64,000 nt of DNA from Escherichia coli (lineage in GTDB: Bacteria; Pseudomonadota; Gammaproteobacteria; Enterobacterales; Enterobacteriaceae). The stretch lies in assembly GCF_003991155.1 (NCBI RefSeq), contig NZ_CP031293.1. One strand, written 5' to 3'. Below, one piece after another: positions 19,118-47,148 of this stretch (its first letter is position 1; every line of letters starts with the position of its first letter). The notes under the pieces are model-generated. The model made no database searches, was not told the origin of the DNA, and saw only the letters and a list, made by a program, of their open reading frames with translations. Made by a program: the position numbers and the translations under genes.

Positions 19118-19225
19118 TGCTCGCTTTGTGCACTGACTCAAGATTTTTATCTTGCGTTAACTTATTTTTAACTTAATGTATCAATCGTAATCATTTTACT
19201 TTCGAATGAAAGAAGCGAGGTTGAT

Positions 19226-20485
19226 ATGACTTTTTCCTGTGAGACGCTGCCCACAGATGCGAAAGCGGCTATCCGAGAGATGAAAGCTGCGCTGCGAGGA
19301 CAGCTCGGTGATGTGCAACAGGTTTTCGATACACTCTCTGCAAAAATCGAAACGCGTGTTGCTGAAATCGATGCCCTAAAAGCGCAAGGGCTGCCGGTTT
19401 GGCCGGAAGTTTCTTATAGTGATATTGCCGCAGGTACAGTAAGCGATGCCACTCGCAATGAAATTAAACGTCGCGGCTGTGCAGTCATAAAAGGCCATTT
19501 CCCTCGCGAGCAGGCGATGGCGTGGGATCGTGCCATGCTCGATTATCTTGATATCAATCATTTTGATGATGTTTATAAAGGCCCTGGCGACAGTTTTTTC
19601 GGCTCGCTGGAGGCTTCTCGTCCCGAAATCTATCCCATTTACTGGTCGCAAGCACAGATGCAGGCGCGGCAGAGCGAAAACATGGCTGCTGTGCAATCTT
19701 TTCTAAACCGACTGTGGACGTCTGAAAGCAACGGCAAACAGTGGTTTAATCCTGATATCAGTGTGATTTATCCAGACAGGATCCGCCGCCGCCCTCCAGG
19801 TACTACATCTAAAGGCCTGGGCGCGCATACCGATTCTGGTGCGCTGGAACGGTGGTTATTACCCGCTTATCAGCGCGTTTTTGCCAATGTGTTTAATGGT
19901 AATTTCGATGATTACGATCCCTGGGATGCAGCACACCGGACCGATGTCGAAGAGTACACGGTAGATAACACTACAAAATGTTCGGTGTTCCGCACGTTTC
20001 AAGGCTGGACGGCGCTCTCTGATATGTTATCGGGTCAGGGATTGTTACATGTGGTGCCTATCCCGGAAGCGATGGCGTATGTTTTATTGCGCCCGCTGCT
20101 GGATGACGTACCGGACGATGAACTGTGCGGGGTTGCACCTGGCAAAGTTCTGCCCATTTCAGAGAAATGGCATCCACTACTGCTTAAAGCGCTGACTTCC
20201 ATTCCCGCGATAACAGCAGGGGATTCCGTCTGGTGGCACTGCGATGTGATTCACTCCGTCGCGCCAGTAGACAATCAACAGGGTTGGGGCAACGTGATGT
20301 ATATCCCTGCTGCGCCAATGTGCGAGAAAAATCGGGCTTATGCACACAAAGTCAAAATGGCGCTGGAAAAAGGCGCATCACCTGGCGACTTCCCGCGGGA
20401 AGATTATGAAGCAAACTGGGAAGGCCGCTTTACGCTGGAGGATCTGAACATTCACGGTAAGCGCGCACTGGGCATGGATGTTTGA
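19226..20485 (+). CDS. ybiU: DUF1479-family protein YbiU
   Basis: 419-aa ORF; recognised sequence and synteny. Confidence 0.88.
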   Translation: MTFSCETLPTDAKAAIREMKAALRGQLGDVQQVFDTLSAKIETRVAEIDALKAQGLPVWPEVSYSDIAAGTVSDATRNEIKRRGCAVIKGHFPREQAMAWDRAMLDYLDINHFDDVYKGPGDSFFGSLEASRPEIYPIYWSQAQMQARQSENMAAVQSFLNRLWTSESNGKQWFNPDISVIYPDRIRRRPPGTTSKGLGAHTDSGALERWLLPAYQRVFANVFNGNFDDYDPWDAAHRTDVEEYTVDNTTKCSVFRTFQGWTALSDMLSGQGLLHVVPIPEAMAYVLLRPLLDDVPDDELCGVAPGKVLPISEKWHPLLLKALTSIPAITAGDSVWWHCDVIHSVAPVDNQQGWGNVMYIPAAPMCEKNRAYAHKVKMALEKGASPGDFPREDYEANWEGRFTLEDLNIHGKRALGMDV

Positions 20486-20724: not shown

Positions 20725-21945
<1,221 letters not shown>

Positions 21946-30385: not shown

Positions 30386-30474
30386 ATTTTCTCGCTACTT
30401 TTCCTCTACACCGTCTTTATATATCGAATTATGCAAAAGCATATTTATTCCGAAAATTCCTGGCGAGCAAATAA

Positions 30475-31152
<678 letters not shown>

Positions 31153-33850: not shown

Positions 33851-33934
33851 CACACCAGATTCCTCTCATTTAAAATCGCTCCTCCCCCAGCATCTATACT
33901 TATCTTTTTGCTCTGTTTTCTCACTGGAGGAGTC

Positions 33935-36160
33935 ATGCGGTGGATCCTGTTCATCCTCTTCTGCCTGCTGGGCGCACCTGCCCACGCGGTATCCATACCC
34001 GGCGTTACAACCACAACGACAACGGACTCAACGACTGAACCGGCCCCGGAACCGGATATCGAACAAAAAAAAGCGGCCTATGGCGCACTGGCGGATGTGC
34101 TGGATAATGACACCTCGCGTAAAGAGTTGATCGACCAGTTGCGCACCGTCGCCGCGACGCCCCCGGCAGAACCCGTACCGAAGATCGTGCCGCCGACGCT
34201 GGTTGAAGAGCAAACCGTGCTGCAAAAGGTCACCGAAGTCAGCCGCCATTATGGTGAAGCCCTTTCCGCCCGCTTCGGGCAACTTTATCGCAATATCACC
34301 GGCTCCCCGCATAAGCCGTTTAATCCACAAACCTTCAGCAATGCGTTGACCCATTTTTCAATGTTAGCGGTATTAGTGTTTGGTTTTTACTGGCTGATTC
34401 GCCTGTGCGCACTTCCGCTGTATCGCAAAATGGGCCAGTGGGCGCGGCAAAAAAATCGTGAGCGCAATAACTGGTTGCAGCTTCCGGCGATGATTATCGG
34501 GGCGTTTATTATCGACCTTCTGTTACTGGCACTGACATTATTTGTCGGTCAGGTTTTAAGCGACAACCTGAATGCGGGCAGTCGCACCATCGCTTTCCAA
34601 CAAAGTTTGTTTCTCAACGCCTTTGCCCTGATTGAATTTTTCAAAGCCGTACTACGCCTGATTTTTTGCCCAAACGTGGCGGAACTGCGCCCGTTCACGA
34701 TTCATGACGAGACCGCCCGTTACTGGAGTCGTCGCCTGAGCTGGTTAAGCAGCCTGATTGGCTATGGTCTGATTGTGGCTGTGCCGATTATCTCTAATCA
34801 GGTGAATGTACAGATAGGTGCGCTGGCGAACGTCATCATTATGCTGTGCATGACGGTCTGGGCGCTGTACCTGATCTTTCGTAATAAAAAAGAGATTACC
34901 CAGCATTTGCTCAACTTCGCGGAGCATTCGCTGGCCTTTTTCAGCCTGTTTATCCGCGCCTTTGCGCTGGTGTGGCACTGGCTGGCAAGCGCCTATTTTA
35001 TCGTGCTGTTTTTCTTTTCGTTGTTCGATCCGGGCAACAGCCTGAAATTTATGATGGGTGCAACGGTGCGCAGCCTGGCGATTATTGGTATCGCAGCATT
35101 TGTTTCCGGTATGTTTTCCCGCTGGCTGGCGAAAACCATCACCCTCTCGCCACATACTCAGCGTAACTATCCCGAGCTGCAAAAACGGCTGAATGGATGG
35201 CTTTCGGCGGCACTGAAAACAGCGCGTATTCTGACAGTCTGCGTGGCGGTAATGCTGCTGTTGAGCGCATGGGGATTGTTCGATTTCTGGAACTGGCTGC
35301 AAAACGGCGCGGGGCAGAAAACCGTAGATATCCTGATCCGTATCGCACTCATTCTTTTCTTCTCGGCGGTTGGCTGGACAGTGCTCGCCAGTTTGATCGA
35401 AAACCGGCTGGCTTCGGATATTCATGGCCGCCCGCTACCCAGCGCCCGTACGCGTACCCTGCTGACGCTGTTTCGTAACGCGCTGGCGGTGATTATCAGT
35501 ACCATCACCATCATGATTGTGTTGTCGGAAATCGGCGTTAATATCGCGCCATTGCTGGCAGGTGCCGGGGCATTAGGTCTGGCTATCTCGTTTGGTTCGC
35601 AAACGCTGGTGAAAGATATTATCACCGGGGTATTTATTCAGTTTGAAAACGGCATGAACACTGGAGATTTGGTGACTATCGGGCCGTTGACCGGCACTGT
35701 GGAACGGATGTCGATTCGCTCCGTGGGCGTGCGTCAGGATACCGGGGCGTATCACATCATTCCGTGGTCTTCGATAACTACCTTTGCTAACTTCGTCCGC
35801 GGCATTGGTTCGGTGGTGGCAAATTACGATGTTGATCGCCATGAAGATGCTGATAAAGCCAATCAGGCACTGAAAGATGCGGTAGCGGAATTAATGGAAA
35901 ACGAAGAAATTCGCGGGCTGATTATTGGTGAACCGAATTTTGCCGGGATTGTCGGCTTAAGCAATACCGCGTTTACACTGCGTGTTTCGTTCACCACGCT
36001 GCCACTCAAACAGTGGACGGTCCGCTTTGCCCTCGACAGCCAGGTGAAAAAACATTTCGACCTGGCGGGCGTTCGCGCGCCAGTGCAGACTTATCAGGTG
36101 CTGCCTGCTCCGGGCGCGACCCCGGCTGAACCGTTGCCGCCGGGGGAACCAACGCTTTAA
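33935..36160 (+). CDS. ybiO: Mechanosensitive channel YbiO (MscS family), start at MRWILFIL
   Basis: About 741 aa with signal-like N-terminus, multiple TM helices and an MscS-like C-terminal domain. Confidence 0.88.
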
Positions 36161-37083
36161 CGCTGGCGATTGACAAAACGGCGGCGCTGCTCGTCGTTCA
36201 TAAAGGTCCAGGCTATAAAGCGGCTCTGCTTTTGCCCCTGGGCCATCTCTTTTTTGACCACTTTCACCGCGCCCACGTCCGTCAGAGCACGATACAACGG
36301 CGGTAAGTTTTCGCCACGAGATACCAGCGAGGTAAACCACATCACCTGCTTCGCGAAGCCTTTGCTCTCTTCAATCATCTTTTTAATAAAAGCGACTTCA
36401 CCGCCTTCACACCACAACTCCTGTTGCTGACCACCAAAATTCAGTGCATCGTCTTTGTTTAGCCCCAGGTTACGGCGTTTACGTTCACTACCTGCCCGTG
36501 CCGCAGCGGCGGAATCGTGGAATGGCGGGTTACACAAGGTCGCGTCGTATTGCTCGTTTTTATGGATGATGCCGTTAAAAATCGCCCCACTCTCTTTTTG
36601 CCGACGCAGACGAATGGCGCGGTTAAGCCCCGGATTAGCACTGATGATCGCCTGCGCACTGCTTAACGCCTGGCTGCTGGTTTCACTACCAGTAAAACGC
36701 CAGCCATATTCATGTACGCCAATCAGCGGATAAATACAGTTCGCACCAACGCCGATATCCAGAATGCTGGCATTAGCTGGAATTGATCCTGTTGCTTCTG
36801 CCAGTAAATCGGCAAGGTGATGAATATAATCCGCCCGGCCCGGTACTGGTGGGCAGAGAAAACCGTCGGGGATATCCCAGTTCGCTACGGCGTAAAAATG
36901 GGCCAGCAACGCCTTATTGAGCGCCTTCACCGCCAGCGGATTGGCAAAGTCTACGCTTTGCTCCCCGGCGGGTGTAAGCGTGAGGAATTGCCTGAGTTCA
37001 GGATTGACCTGACAAAGTGTGGCGAGATCGTAGCTGCTGTGATGACGGTTGCGCGGATGCAACCCCGGTTTCTGGGCGGACAT
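36157..37083 (-). CDS. rlmF: 23S rRNA m6A1618 methyltransferase RlmF (start at [12 protein letters not shown])
   Basis: SAM-dependent methyltransferase; its 3' end overlaps the convergent ybiO stop by 4 nt. Confidence 0.88.
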
Positions 37084-37358
37084 AGCATTCTCCTTTAAGC
37101 AGCGGCGTAAGATACCCGCATAACGCGACAGGGTAAATATCTGGCTGCGTTTATCATTTCTAAAAACCTTCACATGGCTATGGTTTATGGCAATTCACCA
37201 TAAAAATCATCATCATGCATGTCATTGATTTGTCTTATTTTGTAAAAATATATCGTTCAAAAAATAAGCGCATCTCTGTCAATTTTTTGCGTCATTTTCA
37301 TCGCCCAGGCGACCTACACTTATCAGGCACTACCCGTTGTATTTATGAGGATGTCATT

Positions 37359-37619
37359 ATGAAAAAGTGCCTCACACTACTGATTGCCACCGTCCTGAGC
37401 GGAATCTCTCTCACGGCTTATGCCGCGCAACCGATGAGTAACCTGGACAGCGGTCAGCTACGGCCCGCCGGTACCGTTTCGGCAACTGGCGCATCAAACC
37501 TAAGCGATCTGGAGGATAAACTGGCAGAAAAAGCGCGCGAACAAGGCGCGAAAGGTTATGTCATTAATTCCGCAGGCGGAAATGACCAGATGTTCGGTAC
37601 TGCAATCATCTACAAATAA
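37359..37619 (+). CDS. mcbA: YdgH/BhsA/McbA-family (DUF1471) periplasmic protein McbA (YbiM), 86 aa
   Basis: Signal peptide plus the DUF1471 C-terminal motif (GAKGYVINSA...GTAIIYK). Confidence 0.85.
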   Translation: MKKCLTLLIATVLSGISLTAYAAQPMSNLDSGQLRPAGTVSATGASNLSDLEDKLAEKAREQGAKGYVINSAGGNDQMFGTAIIYK

Positions 37620-37753
37620 CCCCACCAACGTAACTGCATTCGCCTCTGGATGCAGTTTTCGTCCGATTTGTAAGCAAAAAACATCAAATATGAACGCAAT
37701 GTAAATAAATGTATTTCTTTTTCGCGCAATGGGTGATAGAAAAACGCGCCAAG

Positions 37754-37780
37754 TGATAATGCTTATCAAAATTATTATCA
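37754..37780. promoter_or_regulatory. Fur box candidate upstream of fiu
   Basis: gataatgcttatcaaaattattatcac resembles the Fur consensus GATAATGATAATCATTATC; about 100 bp upstream of the fiu start. Confidence 0.55.
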
Positions 37781-37883
37781 CTTGCACGAACGCTATCACG
37801 AGATTAACAGTGGCATCGCATCCGCAGAGATGCTTTCTCGTGGCAGTGAAAATTTCAACATATAAGAAAAAGTCACCTGCAAA

Positions 37884-40166
37884 ATGGAAAACAATCGCAA
37901 TTTCCCTGCCAGACAATTTCATTCGCTCACGTTCTTTGCTGGTCTTTGTATTGGCATCACGCCTGTGGCTCAGGCTCTCGCCGCCGAAGGGCAAACTAAC
38001 GCGGATGACACGCTGGTTGTCGAAGCATCAACGCCTTCGCTTTATGCGCCACAACAATCTGCCGATCCGAAATTCTCGCGTCCGGTAGCGGATACTACCC
38101 GCACGATGACGGTGATTTCTGAACAAGTGATTAAAGATCAGGGCGCAACCAACCTTACCGACGCGCTCAAAAACGTCCCCGGAGTGGGTGCGTTTTTTGC
38201 TGGTGAGAACGGTAACTCCACCACTGGCGACGCCATTTATATGCGCGGTGCCGATACTTCTAACAGTATTTATATTGATGGCATTCGCGATATCGGCAGC
38301 GTCTCGCGCGACACCTTCAATACCGAGCAGGTCGAAGTAATTAAAGGGCCGTCCGGCACCGACTACGGGCGCAGCGCGCCGACGGGCTCGATCAATATGA
38401 TCAGCAAGCAGCCGCGCAATGATTCCGGCATTGACGCCTCCGCGAGTATTGGCAGCGCCTGGTTCCGCCGCGGCACGCTGGACGTCAATCAGGTCATTGG
38501 TGATACCACTGCGGTGCGCCTGAATGTGATGGGTGAAAAAACGCACGATGCCGGACGCGACAAAGTTAAAAATGAGCGTTACGGCGTCGCCCCTTCTGTC
38601 GCTTTTGGCCTTGGCACAGCGAATCGTTTGTATCTTAATTATCTGCATGTCACCCAGCACAACACGCCAGACGGCGGCATTCCGACCATCGGTTTACCGG
38701 GTTATTCTGCCCCATCTGCGGGAACGGCGGCCCTGAATCATTCCGGAAAAGTTGATACTCATAACTTTTACGGCACGGATTCCGATTACGACGATTCGAC
38801 CACCGACACCGCTACCATGCGTTTTGAGCACGACATCAACGATAACACCACCATTCGCAATACTACCCGTTGGTCGCGCGTGAAGCAGGATTACCTGATG
38901 ACGGCGATTATGGGCGGGGCGTCGAATATTACCCAGCCCACCAGCGATGTGAATAGCTGGACCTGGTCACGCACGGCGAATACTAAAGATGTGAGTAATA
39001 AAATTCTCACCAACCAGACCAACCTGACCTCGACGTTCTATACCGGTTCTATCGGTCATGATGTCAGTACCGGCGTGGAATTTACCCGTGAAACGCAGAC
39101 TAACTACGGCGTTAATCCGGTGACGTTACCTGCGGTAAATATTTATCATCCTGACAGCAGCATTCATCCCGGCGGCCTGACGCGCAACGGCGCAAACGCC
39201 AATGGTCAGACGGATACCTTCGCAATTTACGCCTTCGATACGCTGCAAATCACCCGTGATTTTGAGCTGAACGGCGGGATCCGTCTGGATAATTATCATA
39301 CTGAATATGACAGTGCCACCGCCTGCGGCGGCAGCGGACGCGGTGCCATCACCTGCCCTGCTGGCGTGGCAAAAGGTTCTCCGGTCACCACCGTCGATAC
39401 CGCCAAGTCGGGCAATCTGGTGAACTGGAAAGCCGGGGCGCTGTATCACCTGACGGAAAACGGCAATGTCTATATTAACTATGCCGTTTCCCAGCAGCCT
39501 CCGGGCGGCAACAACTTCGCCCTTGCGCAGTCTGGCAGCGGTAACAGTGCCAACCGCACCGATTTTAAACCGCAAAAAGCCAACACCAGCGAGATTGGCA
39601 CCAAATGGCAGGTTCTGGATAAACGCCTGCTACTTACCGCCGCGCTGTTCCGTACTGATATTGAAAATGAAGTTGAGCAAAATGATGACGGGACTTATTC
39701 GCAATATGGTAAGAAACGTGTCGAAGGCTATGAGATATCCGTGGCCGGGAATATCACCCCCGCGTGGCAGGTGATTGGCGGCTATACCCAGCAAAAAGCA
39801 ACCATCAAAAACGGCAAAGATGTTGCCCAAGATGGTTCCTCATCGCTGCCCTATACGCCGGAGCACGCCTTTACCTTATGGAGCCAATATCAGGCAACCG
39901 ATGATATTTCCGTTGGTGCGGGCGCACGGTATATCGGCAGTATGCATAAAGGTTCTGACGGCGCGGTGGGAACGCCAGCGTTTACCGAAGGTTATTGGGT
40001 CGCCGACGCTAAACTGGGGTATCGGGTTAATCGCAATCTCGACTTCCAGCTAAACGTCTACAACCTGTTTGATACCGATTACGTCGCCTCAATCAACAAG
40101 AGCGGCTACCGTTATCACCCGGGCGAGCCAAGAACCTTCTTGCTCACGGCCAATATGCATTTCTGA
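37884..40166 (+). CDS. fiu: TonB-dependent catecholate siderophore receptor Fiu
   Basis: 760-aa ORF with plug and beta-barrel regions and a C-terminal aromatic residue. Confidence 0.92.
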
Positions 40167-40207
40167 TTCAGATGTGGGGCGCAGGCCCCATTTTTTGGAG
40201 AACTTGT

Positions 40208-40885
40208 ATGATGTACCACATTCCCGGCGTGCTATCGCCAAAGGACGTCGCCCGGTTTCGCGAACAACTGGAACAAGCCGAATGGGTGGATGGACGCGTC
40301 ACCACCGGCGCACAAGGTGCGCAAGTTAAGAACAATCAACAGGTAGACACCCGCAGCACGTTATACGCCGCCCTGCAAAATGAGGTGCTGAACGCGGTTA
40401 ATCAACATGCTTTGTTCTTTGCCGCGGCCTTGCCGCGTACCCTTTCCACGCCGCTGTTTAATCGCTATCAGAACAATGAAACCTATGGTTTCCATGTGGA
40501 TGGCGCAGTACGCAGCCATCCACAAAACGGCTGGATGCGCACTGACCTTTCTGCCACGCTGTTTTTAAGCGATCCAGAAAGCTACGACGGCGGCGAACTG
40601 GTCGTTAATGACACCTTCGGGCAACATCGGGTAAAACTCCCGGCAGGCGATCTGGTGTTGTATCCCTCCAGCAGCCTGCATTGCGTGACACCCGTAACCC
40701 GCGGCGTGCGAGTGGCATCATTTATGTGGATCCAGTCGATGATCCGCGATGATAAAAAGCGCGCCATGCTGTTTGAACTGGACAACAATATTCAGTCGCT
40801 GAAAAGCCACTACGGCGAAAGTGAAGAGATCCTGTCGCTGCTCAATCTTTATCATAATCTGCTGCGGGAATGGTCGGAGATCTGA
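40208..40885 (+). CDS. ybiX: Fe(II)/2-oxoglutarate-dependent hydroxylase YbiX (PKHD-type), start at [10 protein letters not shown]
   Basis: 225 aa with HxD...H motif context; sits downstream of fiu as in the K-12 operon. Confidence 0.88.
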
Positions 40886-40958
40886 CGCTTGAACTGCCCG
40901 AGTTCGTCCCTATATTAGCTACACTTAGCTGTACAAGCATTGATATGGGGAGGACGAT

Positions 40959-41225
40959 ATGGCATCCGGTTGGGCTAATGATGACGCCGTCAACGAACAG
41001 ATCAACAGTACAATTGAAGATGCGATTGCCCGCGCTCGGGGTGAAATTCCGCATGGCGAAAGCCTGTATGAATGTGAAGAGTGCGGTGCCCCTATCCCGC
41101 AGGCCCGTCGGGAAGCCATTCCTGGCGTGCGCTTATGCATTCATTGTCAGCAGGAGAAAGATTTACAAAAACCAGCTTATACAGGATATAATCGCAGAGG
41201 TTCGAAAGACAGCCAGTTACGTTAA
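40959..41225 (+). CDS. ybiI: DksA/TraR-family C4-type zinc-finger protein YbiI
   Basis: 88-aa ORF with CxxC...CxxC (CEECGAPI...CIHCQ). Confidence 0.88.
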   Translation: MASGWANDDAVNEQINSTIEDAIARARGEIPHGESLYECEECGAPIPQARREAIPGVRLCIHCQQEKDLQKPAYTGYNRRGSKDSQLR

Positions 41226-41489
41226 CTACAACTGGCGGGATGTATAGCGAGTATAATTTGTATTTTGCGTGGCATTCCGTGCCTTTAACGCTGTCGTGAC
41301 TGCCACGCTGCATAAAACAAGTCCATAAGTTCAACAAATAAATGGATTATCAGTATGTTAGATATCAATCAATTTATTTGAACAAGGCGGTCAATTCTCT
41401 TCGATTTTATCTCTCGTAAAAAAACGTGATACTCATCACATCGACGAAACAACGTCACTTATACAAAAATCACCTGCGAGAGATTAATT

Positions 41490-41750
41490 ATGAAAACTAT
41501 CAATACTGTTGTTGCTGCTATGGCTCTTTCAACTCTGTCATTTGGCGTGTTTGCCGCGGAACCGGTAACGGCATCCCAGGCACAGAACATGAATAAAATC
41601 GGCGTGGTTTCTGCCGATGGCGCATCCACCCTCGATGCCCTGGAAGCGAAACTGGCTGAGAAAGCTGCGGCAGCTGGGGCGAGTGGATACAGCATCACTT
41701 CTGCCACCAACAACAATAAATTAAGCGGTACTGCGGTAATTTATAAGTAA
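41490..41750 (+). CDS. ybiJ: DUF1471-family periplasmic protein YbiJ
   Basis: 86 aa with signal peptide and the C-terminal SGTAVIYK motif. Confidence 0.88.
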   Translation: MKTINTVVAAMALSTLSFGVFAAEPVTASQAQNMNKIGVVSADGASTLDALEAKLAEKAAAAGASGYSITSATNNNKLSGTAVIYK

Positions 41751-46426: not shown

Positions 46427-46708
46427 TTATTGCGCTGGTGGCCATTGCAGGGCGGTATGTAAAACACGCAGTACCGAGAGCGTATCGCCCTCCACTTGGT
46501 AGATCAGCACATAATGCGGCCTGACAACGGCTTCATGTGTACCAGCGACTCGTCCGGCCCGGTACATCTCCGGGCGTTCACAGGCCTGTTCCGCAATGGC
46601 TTCAAATTGATTATCAAGGGCTATTGCCGCTAGCGGATTATCTTTACTGATGTATTCCATGATTTGCTCCCTGTCAGACAGGGACATTGGCTTCCATTCC
46701 AGACGCAT
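46427..46708 (-). CDS. ParE/RelE-superfamily toxin, 93 aa
   Basis: Translation MRLEWKPMSLSDREQIMEYISKDNPLAA...PEMYRAGRVAGTHEAVVRPHYVLIYQVEGDTLSVLRVLH has the ParE-like layout; the start overlaps the upstream gene's stop (TAATG). Confidence 0.75.
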   Translation of the reverse strand: MRLEWKPMSLSDREQIMEYISKDNPLAAIALDNQFEAIAEQACERPEMYRAGRVAGTHEAVVRPHYVLIYQVEGDTLSVLRVLHTALQWPPAQ

Positions 46709-47148
46709 TAATCCCCCTTCAGCAAGGCTTTTTTACGGGCAGCAAATAGACTTTTGGCCTCTTCATGAGAGAGCGCCGGGCGTGGATCGTCAATGGCGGC
46801 CTGTACCTGTTCACGAAACCAGGCGTCATACGCGGCAGCTTCATGAGCTCGTTTTAATGCCTCTGCCCTGTCTGGTCGGGTCGTTTTCTTCTGACCGTCC
46901 GGGTCGTAATGAGAGGCGTCGACTTCAAACCGGGCAATACCAACATCTTTCAGGTAGTTGACAACCGTTTCCAGCCGTTTAAACAAGCGAATTTGCCGAC
47001 TGCGTTGTGCTGCAAGAGGCCGTTCAGTGTGGCCGTATTTCACGGTCAACGACCAGCCTCCCTGGGTGCCAATAACGTGTGCTGCATCCACTACGCCAGA
47101 TTCAACCAGTTTATGTAAGGTTGAGTGATCGATCGTTTCTGGTGCCAT
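46708..47148 (-). CDS. Putative cognate antitoxin / DNA-binding partner of the ParE-like toxin, atypical 146 aa; family unresolved
   Basis: Translationally coupled directly upstream of the toxin. The C-terminal segment (AAYDAWFREQVQAAIDDPRPALSHEEAKSLFAARKKAL) looks like a toxin-neutralising tail; the N-terminal ~90 aa do not show an obvious RHH, AbrB or HTH signature to me. Confidence 0.6.
   Translation of the reverse strand: MAPETIDHSTLHKLVESGVVDAAHVIGTQGGWSLTVKYGHTERPLAAQRSRQIRLFKRLETVVNYLKDVGIARFEVDASHYDPDGQKKTTRPDRAEALKRAHEAAAYDAWFREQVQAAIDDPRPALSHEEAKSLFAARKKALLKGD

Follow-up and report, generated by a model that had tools for sequence, protein, structure and literature searches.

The locus raises two questions: whether the sequence in front of the siderophore receptor gene fiu is a functional Fur operator, and whether the short distance to the following gene, ybiX, means that the two genes are transcribed together, both of which had been proposed in the initial annotation of the window (the whole 64-kb stretch of DNA analysed here). 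Taken as a whole, the evidence is best explained, almost certainly in our judgement, by a Fur operator of the fiu promoter at 37749–37785, which would act by occlusion, together with leaky read-through of transcription into ybiX. The window runs in the reverse orientation to K-12, and the genes around fiu were annotated through the near-identical strain 2016C-3878 (2 mismatches in 43.8 kb and 0 in a further 18 kb), giving the following arrangement.

33908–36160, plus strand: ybiO.
36157–37173, minus strand: rlmF.
End at 37619, plus strand: mcbA.
37884–40166, plus strand: fiu, a TonB-dependent catecholate siderophore receptor of 760 aa.
40197–40885, plus strand: ybiX, a PKHD-type Fe(II)/2-oxoglutarate hydroxylase of 225 aa, with the ribosome-binding site GGAG at 40197–40200 and the coding sequence at 40208–40885.

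The identity of fiu is given by a full-length match to NCBIfam NF007349 (1508 bits) and is also backed by the RefSeq annotation of identical strains. YbiX matches NF003972 (516 bits) in an equivalog alignment that starts at residue 13 of a longer open reading frame, and the true start of ybiX is therefore placed at 40208; all the orthologues begin with MMYHIP. Fiu is an entry route of the siderophore antibiotic cefiderocol, which lends some practical relevance to its regulatory parts.

The 27-mer first singled out as the Fur box, gataatgcttatcaaaattattatcac, occurs once in the 64-kb window, at 37755–37781; it had been placed one base too early, at 37754–37780, where the sequence reads TGATAATGCTTATCAAAATTATTATCA. 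The proposal that it matches the Fur consensus at most positions holds for both descriptions of the motif. The best match to the 19-bp consensus GATAATGATAATCATTATC is 15/19 on the minus strand at 37755–37773, with 14/19 on the plus strand at 37755 and again, 6 bp further on, at 37761, and the 7-1-7 motif TGATAATnATTATCA is matched at 13/14 positions at 37754–37768, the top match in the whole 64 kb, and at 12/14 positions at 37766–37780. Together with the matrix scores given below, the matches define an array with the following parts.

37749–37785, no strand assigned: Fur operator of four overlapping 19-bp sites in 6-bp register, starting at 37749, 37755, 37761, and 37767.
37754–37760 and 37774–37780: outer inverted repeat of the operator, TGATAAT and ATTATCA.
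37754–37768 and 37766–37780: the two 7-1-7 motifs of the operator.

Two palindromic 19-bp weight matrices were trained on 18 other Fur-regulated K-12 promoter regions (fepA-fes, fepD-entS, fepB-entC, fhuA, cirA, fecI, fecA, tonB, exbB, fhuE, fhuF, feoA, ryhB, sufA, mntH, nrdH, yncD-yncE, and bfd), fiu being left out. The consensus-seeded matrix converged to GATAATGATAATCATTATC, and the best-scoring of 400 random-seed de novo runs reached the same motif with a 3-bp shift, AATGATAATAATTATCATT. The former scores 9.2, 11.8, 14.5, and 14.7 bits at 37749, 37755, 37761, and 37767, respectively, and the latter 13.1, 16.0, and 17.6 bits at 37752, 37758, and 37764, so that the exact 6-bp register is kept throughout by both. 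These values are within the span seen for validated sites: scored leave-one-out, the training sites give 6.2 to 25.3 bits (median ~19). Adding up three sites phased by 6 bp yields 41.0 and 46.8 for the two matrices, respectively, at fiu, the maximum of the window, with the next locus at 25.9 and 25.7. In dinucleotide-preserving shuffles of the intergenic region (264 bp, 40% G+C), the observed cluster score was reached in 0 of 5000, and shuffles of the whole window gave at most 29.3 and 29.9. The array resembles the classical E. coli Fur boxes (fepA-fes, fepB-entC, fhuA, cirA, fecI, fhuF, ryhB, and others) in its overlapping GATAATGATAATCATTATC-type palindromes 6 bp apart, in its overlap with the core promoter, and in its scores; clustered copies phased by 6 bp have been described for footprinted Fur sites (Chen et al. 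2007). It differs from them in having no near-perfect 19-mer (15/19 at best), its strength coming instead from the 37-bp array.

Occupancy of the array in vivo is evident from published ChIP-exo data (Gao et al. 2023 supplement, PMC10164565). The MG1655 Fur peak assigned to fiu-ybiX (840869–840893 in U00096.2 coordinates, converted to NC_000913.3 with an offset of +777 that was verified against the position that Kim et al. 2012 give for fiu) falls at 37745–37769 of the window. The W3110 peak (842081–842093) falls at 37744–37756, and the two KO11FL peaks at 37745–37757 and 37779–37791 bracket the predicted array (PMC10164565). The narrow peaks of W3110 and KO11FL thus lie at the edges of the array, off its centre, and we interpret them as exonuclease borders. 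In the binding-site table of nine strains, fiu is entered nine times and belongs to the core Fur regulon (PMC10164565); no Fur site has been mapped elsewhere in the fiu promoter. The expression data agree with the occupancy. Upon deletion of fur, RNA-seq shows increases of 5.47 log2 for fiu and 5.21 log2 for ybiX in MG1655, and of 10.0 and 7.1 log2, respectively, in W3110, with no change in mcbA, the gene upstream (+0.40 log2) (PMC10164565). A fiu-lacZ fusion is repressed by Fur (Beauchene et al. 2015, PMC4676285), the fiu::lacZ strain H1780 serves as a Fur reporter strain (PMC3050691), and the fiu promoter has been said to hold 'four overlapping binding sites' for Fur (PMC5126674, citing Newman & Shapiro 1999). 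The rise of fiu by 5.5–10 log2 in fur deletions bears out the iron-regulated receptor expression to which the box had been related.

The published data transfer directly to this strain. The 35-bp core at 37750–37784 is base-for-base identical in K-12 MG1655, the promoter with which a comparison had been suggested, and its distance to the fiu ATG is unchanged, so that the published peaks, transcription starts, and RNA 3′ ends can be placed on the window; the differences from K-12 are flanking SNPs (e.g., at 37744 and 37748 on the upstream side and from 37784 onward on the downstream side) and the U-tract of the intergenic terminator (U6 in the window versus CU5 in K-12). Of 5426 complete E. coli genomes, at least 4650 also carry the core unchanged; this count is a minimum, since the search depends on an exact word of 28 bases. 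Beyond the species, a scan with the Fiu protein over one genome per species returned 44 loci, among which 30 full loci from nine genera (Escherichia, Citrobacter, Klebsiella, Raoultella, Silvania, Leclercia, Enterobacter, Pseudocitrobacter, and Pantoea) have their best Fur cluster 117 to 138 bp upstream of the ATG, with scores of 34–60. In an alignment of the upstream regions of 17 species, the mean column identity is just 61%, yet the arms TGATAA...TTAT.A are invariant. The sole change in length is found in the Pantoea-type sequences, from two Pantoea species and from a contig carrying the label E. ludwigii, where exactly 6 bp, one hexamer unit, are missing from the centre of the array; the outer arms TGATAAT and ATTATCA are accordingly 13 nt apart in the window and 7 nt apart in Pantoea. 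Matrix score, identity to K-12, ChIP-exo, fur-deletion expression, and conservation thus all agree on a Fur box at fiu, and every feature of a Fur operator that could be tested was found. The operator is the same as that of K-12 and is already known, fiu being among the oldest Fur reporters and its operator catalogued; its recovery carries little weight as a discovery. The call made from the sequence alone was accurate, and the exact coordinates of the array are now given for this strain.

How Fur would repress from this position depends on the promoter, for which there are two candidates.

37734–37752, plus strand: candidate promoter P1, with an extended −10 (TGaTAGAAA) at 37734–37742 and published starts at 37749 (C) and 37752 (A).
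37733–37760, plus strand: alternative sigma-70 promoter P2, with a −35 (GTGATA) at 37733–37738, a 16-bp spacer, and a −10 (GATAAT) at 37755–37760.

Kim et al. 2012 (PMC3415461, supplement) list the two starts of P1, each supported by 5 reads. Because of these low counts, and because fiu was probably repressed in those cultures, the promoter used upon derepression is uncertain. The hexamer assignment of P1 is inferred; T37734, G37735, A37738, and A37741 are invariant in the 17 species. In a consensus scan P2 is the better sigma-70 match (9/12 consensus positions), with a predicted start at ~37767; the Fur box opens with its −10 hexamer, which lies inside the array, where TGATAA (37754–37759) is invariant in the 17 species. 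No experimental start was found for P2 in the available data, which are from cultures with fiu probably repressed, and the Cappable-seq supplement has no transcription-start entry near the fiu locus. The array begins 0–3 bp from the mapped starts 37749/37752, extending from about −3 to +37 relative to P1, or from −18 to +19 relative to P2. Since it covers either promoter, overlapping the mapped starts and the second −10, exclusion or blocking of RNA polymerase by bound Fur would be the natural mechanism of repression.

It is thus proposed that, when iron is plentiful, Fe2+-Fur dimers would bind the overlapping 19-bp sites on different helix faces with a 6-bp spacing and would keep RNA polymerase from the starts at 37749/37752 and from the −10 and predicted start of P2. 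When iron is scarce, Fur would leave and fiu would be transcribed; about one-fifth of the transcripts would then pass a leaky terminator at 40174–40196 into ybiX, leaving receptor and hydroxylase co-regulated at a ratio of roughly 5:1. An Rfam scan of 37500–41200 at E ≤ 1 gave no match. For the fiu 5′ UTR, compared across 17 species, RNAalifold returned 0 pairs and so no conserved structure, which leaves a terminator-like hairpin at 37818–37833 from a pattern scan unsupported as a conserved element. Published Term-seq data also place an RNA 3′ end within fiu, at 37961 (77 nt inside the coding sequence), where no terminator hairpin is obvious; processing or premature termination could account for it.

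The gap between fiu and ybiX is exactly 41 bp (40167–40207), as had been noted together with the suggestion that it implies co-transcription. It reads UUCAGAU-GUGGGGC-GCAG-GCCCCAU-UUUUU-GGAGAACUUGU-AUG, and contains the following element.

40174–40196, plus strand: intrinsic terminator found by pattern scan, with the stem GUGGGGC/GCCCCAU, the loop GCAG, and then U6.

The 7-bp G+C-rich stem (fold energy, −17.7 kcal/mol; z-score, −2.5) and the U-tract are directly followed by the ribosome-binding site of ybiX, and the 'primary' fiu 3′ end determined by Term-seq (NC_000913.3 position 839219; Adams et al. 2021) maps to 40196, the last U of the tract. The hairpin is found in all 17 species compared. 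Because the MAFFT alignment was out of structural register here, base pairs were counted after anchoring on the GGGG/CCCC core, which is kept in 16 of the 17 species (one Pantoea has CUCC). The C-G pair closing this core is kept in every species for which it could be counted. Covariation is seen one pair further out, with U-A in 10 species and C-G in 6, and the pair beyond is G-C, G-U, or A-U in 15/17. The U-tract ranges from strong in Escherichia to absent in Leclercia. The gap measures 40–51 bp in 17 of 20 loci, the other three having 80 or 212 bp with REP-like insertions: in Escherichia sp. MOD1-EC7003 (L020) and E. whittamii (L021), ~170 bp of REP-like palindromes lie between the arms of the terminator hairpin in a 212-bp spacer, and in Pseudocitrobacter (L030) a REP-like hairpin takes the place of the usual one in an 80-bp spacer.

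The suggestion drawn from the spacing therefore stands in part. Same strand, short gap, and conserved gene order speak for one unit; published transcription-unit tables give fiu-ybiX, sometimes with ybiI (PMC10164565, PMC4676285), and the table of Kim et al. 2012 (PMC3415461) has no ybiX transcription start, while fiu and ybiI have entries. Against plain co-transcription, the spacer holds a terminator, which appears to be leaky rather than absolute. The ybiX/fiu mRNA ratio is 0.17–0.24, in wild type and fur mutants alike (PMC10164565). With ybiX at about one-fifth of fiu and a mapped 3′ end at 40196, we infer that ybiX is co-transcribed with fiu through ~20% read-through; unequal mRNA stability could also contribute to the ratio.

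The alternative that survives best, although we consider it unlikely, is that fiu and ybiX are separate units, divided by an efficient terminator in the spacer, with ybiX under its own Fur-controlled promoter. Such an arrangement would account for a hairpin with U6 and a mapped 'primary' 3′ end between the genes, and for the five-fold lower level of ybiX mRNA, and the promoter could conceivably lie within the 3′ end of fiu. However, the 41-bp spacer is wholly taken up by the terminator and the ribosome-binding site, no Fur matrix match lies in or near it among the top window matches listed, and the listed part of the binding-site table has no separate Fur peak between the two genes. Moreover, the lack of a recorded ybiX start where fiu and ybiI have theirs, the constant ratio of ~0.2 and the nearly equal fold derepression (5.47 versus 5.21 log2 in MG1655), and the pairing of the genes with a gap of 40–51 bp in most loci all argue for co-transcription by partial read-through. 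The short gap is thus not a sign of plain co-transcription; a conserved leaky terminator within it would set the relative dose of receptor and hydroxylase. The hairpin may be a tuned leaky terminator, or a stabiliser, that fixes this ratio at ~5:1. PiuA-PiuC of Pseudomonas and CciT-CciO of Caulobacter have the same order of a Fiu-family receptor gene followed by a YbiX-family dioxygenase gene, both Fur-controlled (PMC12004947), a likeness that concerns gene pairing and Fur control, the intergenic terminator having been examined in Enterobacterales only. Further along the strand, a Term-seq 3′ end lies at 40552, inside ybiX; ybiI has its own transcription starts, located inside ybiX; and the induction in fur mutants falls stepwise from fiu (5.5 log2) and ybiX (5.2) to ybiI (3.0) and ybiJ (1.2), the last two genes lying at 40886–41750.

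Upstream of the promoter, the alignment revealed a second conserved element.

37698–37722, no strand assigned: conserved A/T-rich block ATGTAAATAAATGTATTTCTTTTTC, 27–51 bp upstream of the mapped start.

Within this block, GTAAA (37701–37705), GT (37711–37712), and TT (37714–37715) are invariant in the 17 species. Its conservation is as strong as that of the Fur box, and the Fur matrices give it just 4–6 bits; it could be UP-element-like promoter DNA or the site of a second regulator. An ArcA ChIP peak has been reported at fiu with its centre at ~37706–37713 of the window (Park et al. 2013). We nevertheless rejected an ArcA reading of the block, in which TGTAA (37700) and TGTAT (37710) are 10 bp apart instead of the canonical 11 and for which Park et al. 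called no motif. Expression of fiu varies with oxygen even in fur mutants (Beauchene et al., PMC4676285), and the block may be the site of this otherwise unexplained, Fur-independent control. That the spacer hairpin and the block are both undescribed regulatory parts of the fiu-ybiX unit is a tentative proposal, which we regard as possible but rather doubtful.

The ArcA peak and the oxygen effect, together with CRP being given as an annotated regulator of fiu (Park et al. 2013), might be taken to mean that the element at 37749–37785 is chiefly the operator of another regulator (ArcA, CRP, or H-NS), Fur being secondary. We consider this highly improbable: the centre of the ArcA peak is ~45 bp upstream, off the box, fiu expression in the arcA mutant is essentially unchanged (5.65 versus 5.96; Park et al. 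2013), and deletion of fur alone brings about 40- to 1000-fold derepression, all of which favours Fur as the main regulator acting at the array. Least credible of all, with a probability close to negligible, is that the Fur-like match is incidental to A/T-rich core promoter DNA and that fiu owes its iron regulation to another source or to an indirect effect: the same bases can be read as the sigma-70 −10 GATAAT beside the −35-like GTGATA, and A/T-rich DNA does lift Fur matrix scores (the A/T-rich genes of the window contain several coding-region matches of 14–16 bits), but the shuffles of the same intergenic region never reached the cluster score, ChIP-exo puts Fur exactly at the array in the three mapped strains, and the inverted-repeat arms are, beyond their A/T content, invariant across genera with a single 6-bp unit as the sole length change.

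The remaining matrix matches in the window illustrate that such scores are fallible when taken alone. The high matches at 6184, 4985, 4487, 2154, and 1034 lie within coding sequences (gsiD, pdeI, dgcI, and a toxin gene) and were set aside as chance matches in A/T-rich background. A 15.2-bit match at 19180–19198, 28–46 bp upstream of ybiU (ATG at 19226), coincides with an ArcA motif of Park et al. and is probably an ArcA site rather than a Fur site, the A/T-rich motifs of the two regulators being alike. The top single de novo match in the window (20.5 bits) is the near-perfect palindrome AATAAGAATTGTTCTTATT at 30474–30492, in the rhtA-dps intergenic region, 157–175 bp upstream of the dps ATG (30649). 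A Fur peak is recorded there in one strain's table only: the MG1655 table has no such dps peak between fiu and ybiT-ybiU, and a KO11FL Fur ChIP-exo peak assigned to dps maps to 30483–30495, the K-12 and KO11FL sequences being the same there. Elsewhere, as annotated in 2016C-3878, the window differs from K-12 by an IS621 transposase gene between ybiU and ybiT (~20745–21725), a RelE/ParE toxin gene with a hypothetical gene between dinG and rhlE (~46427–47148), a second pair of RelE/ParE and HTH genes between dgcI and rimO (~860–1566), and a frameshifted dgcI (~1635–2952).
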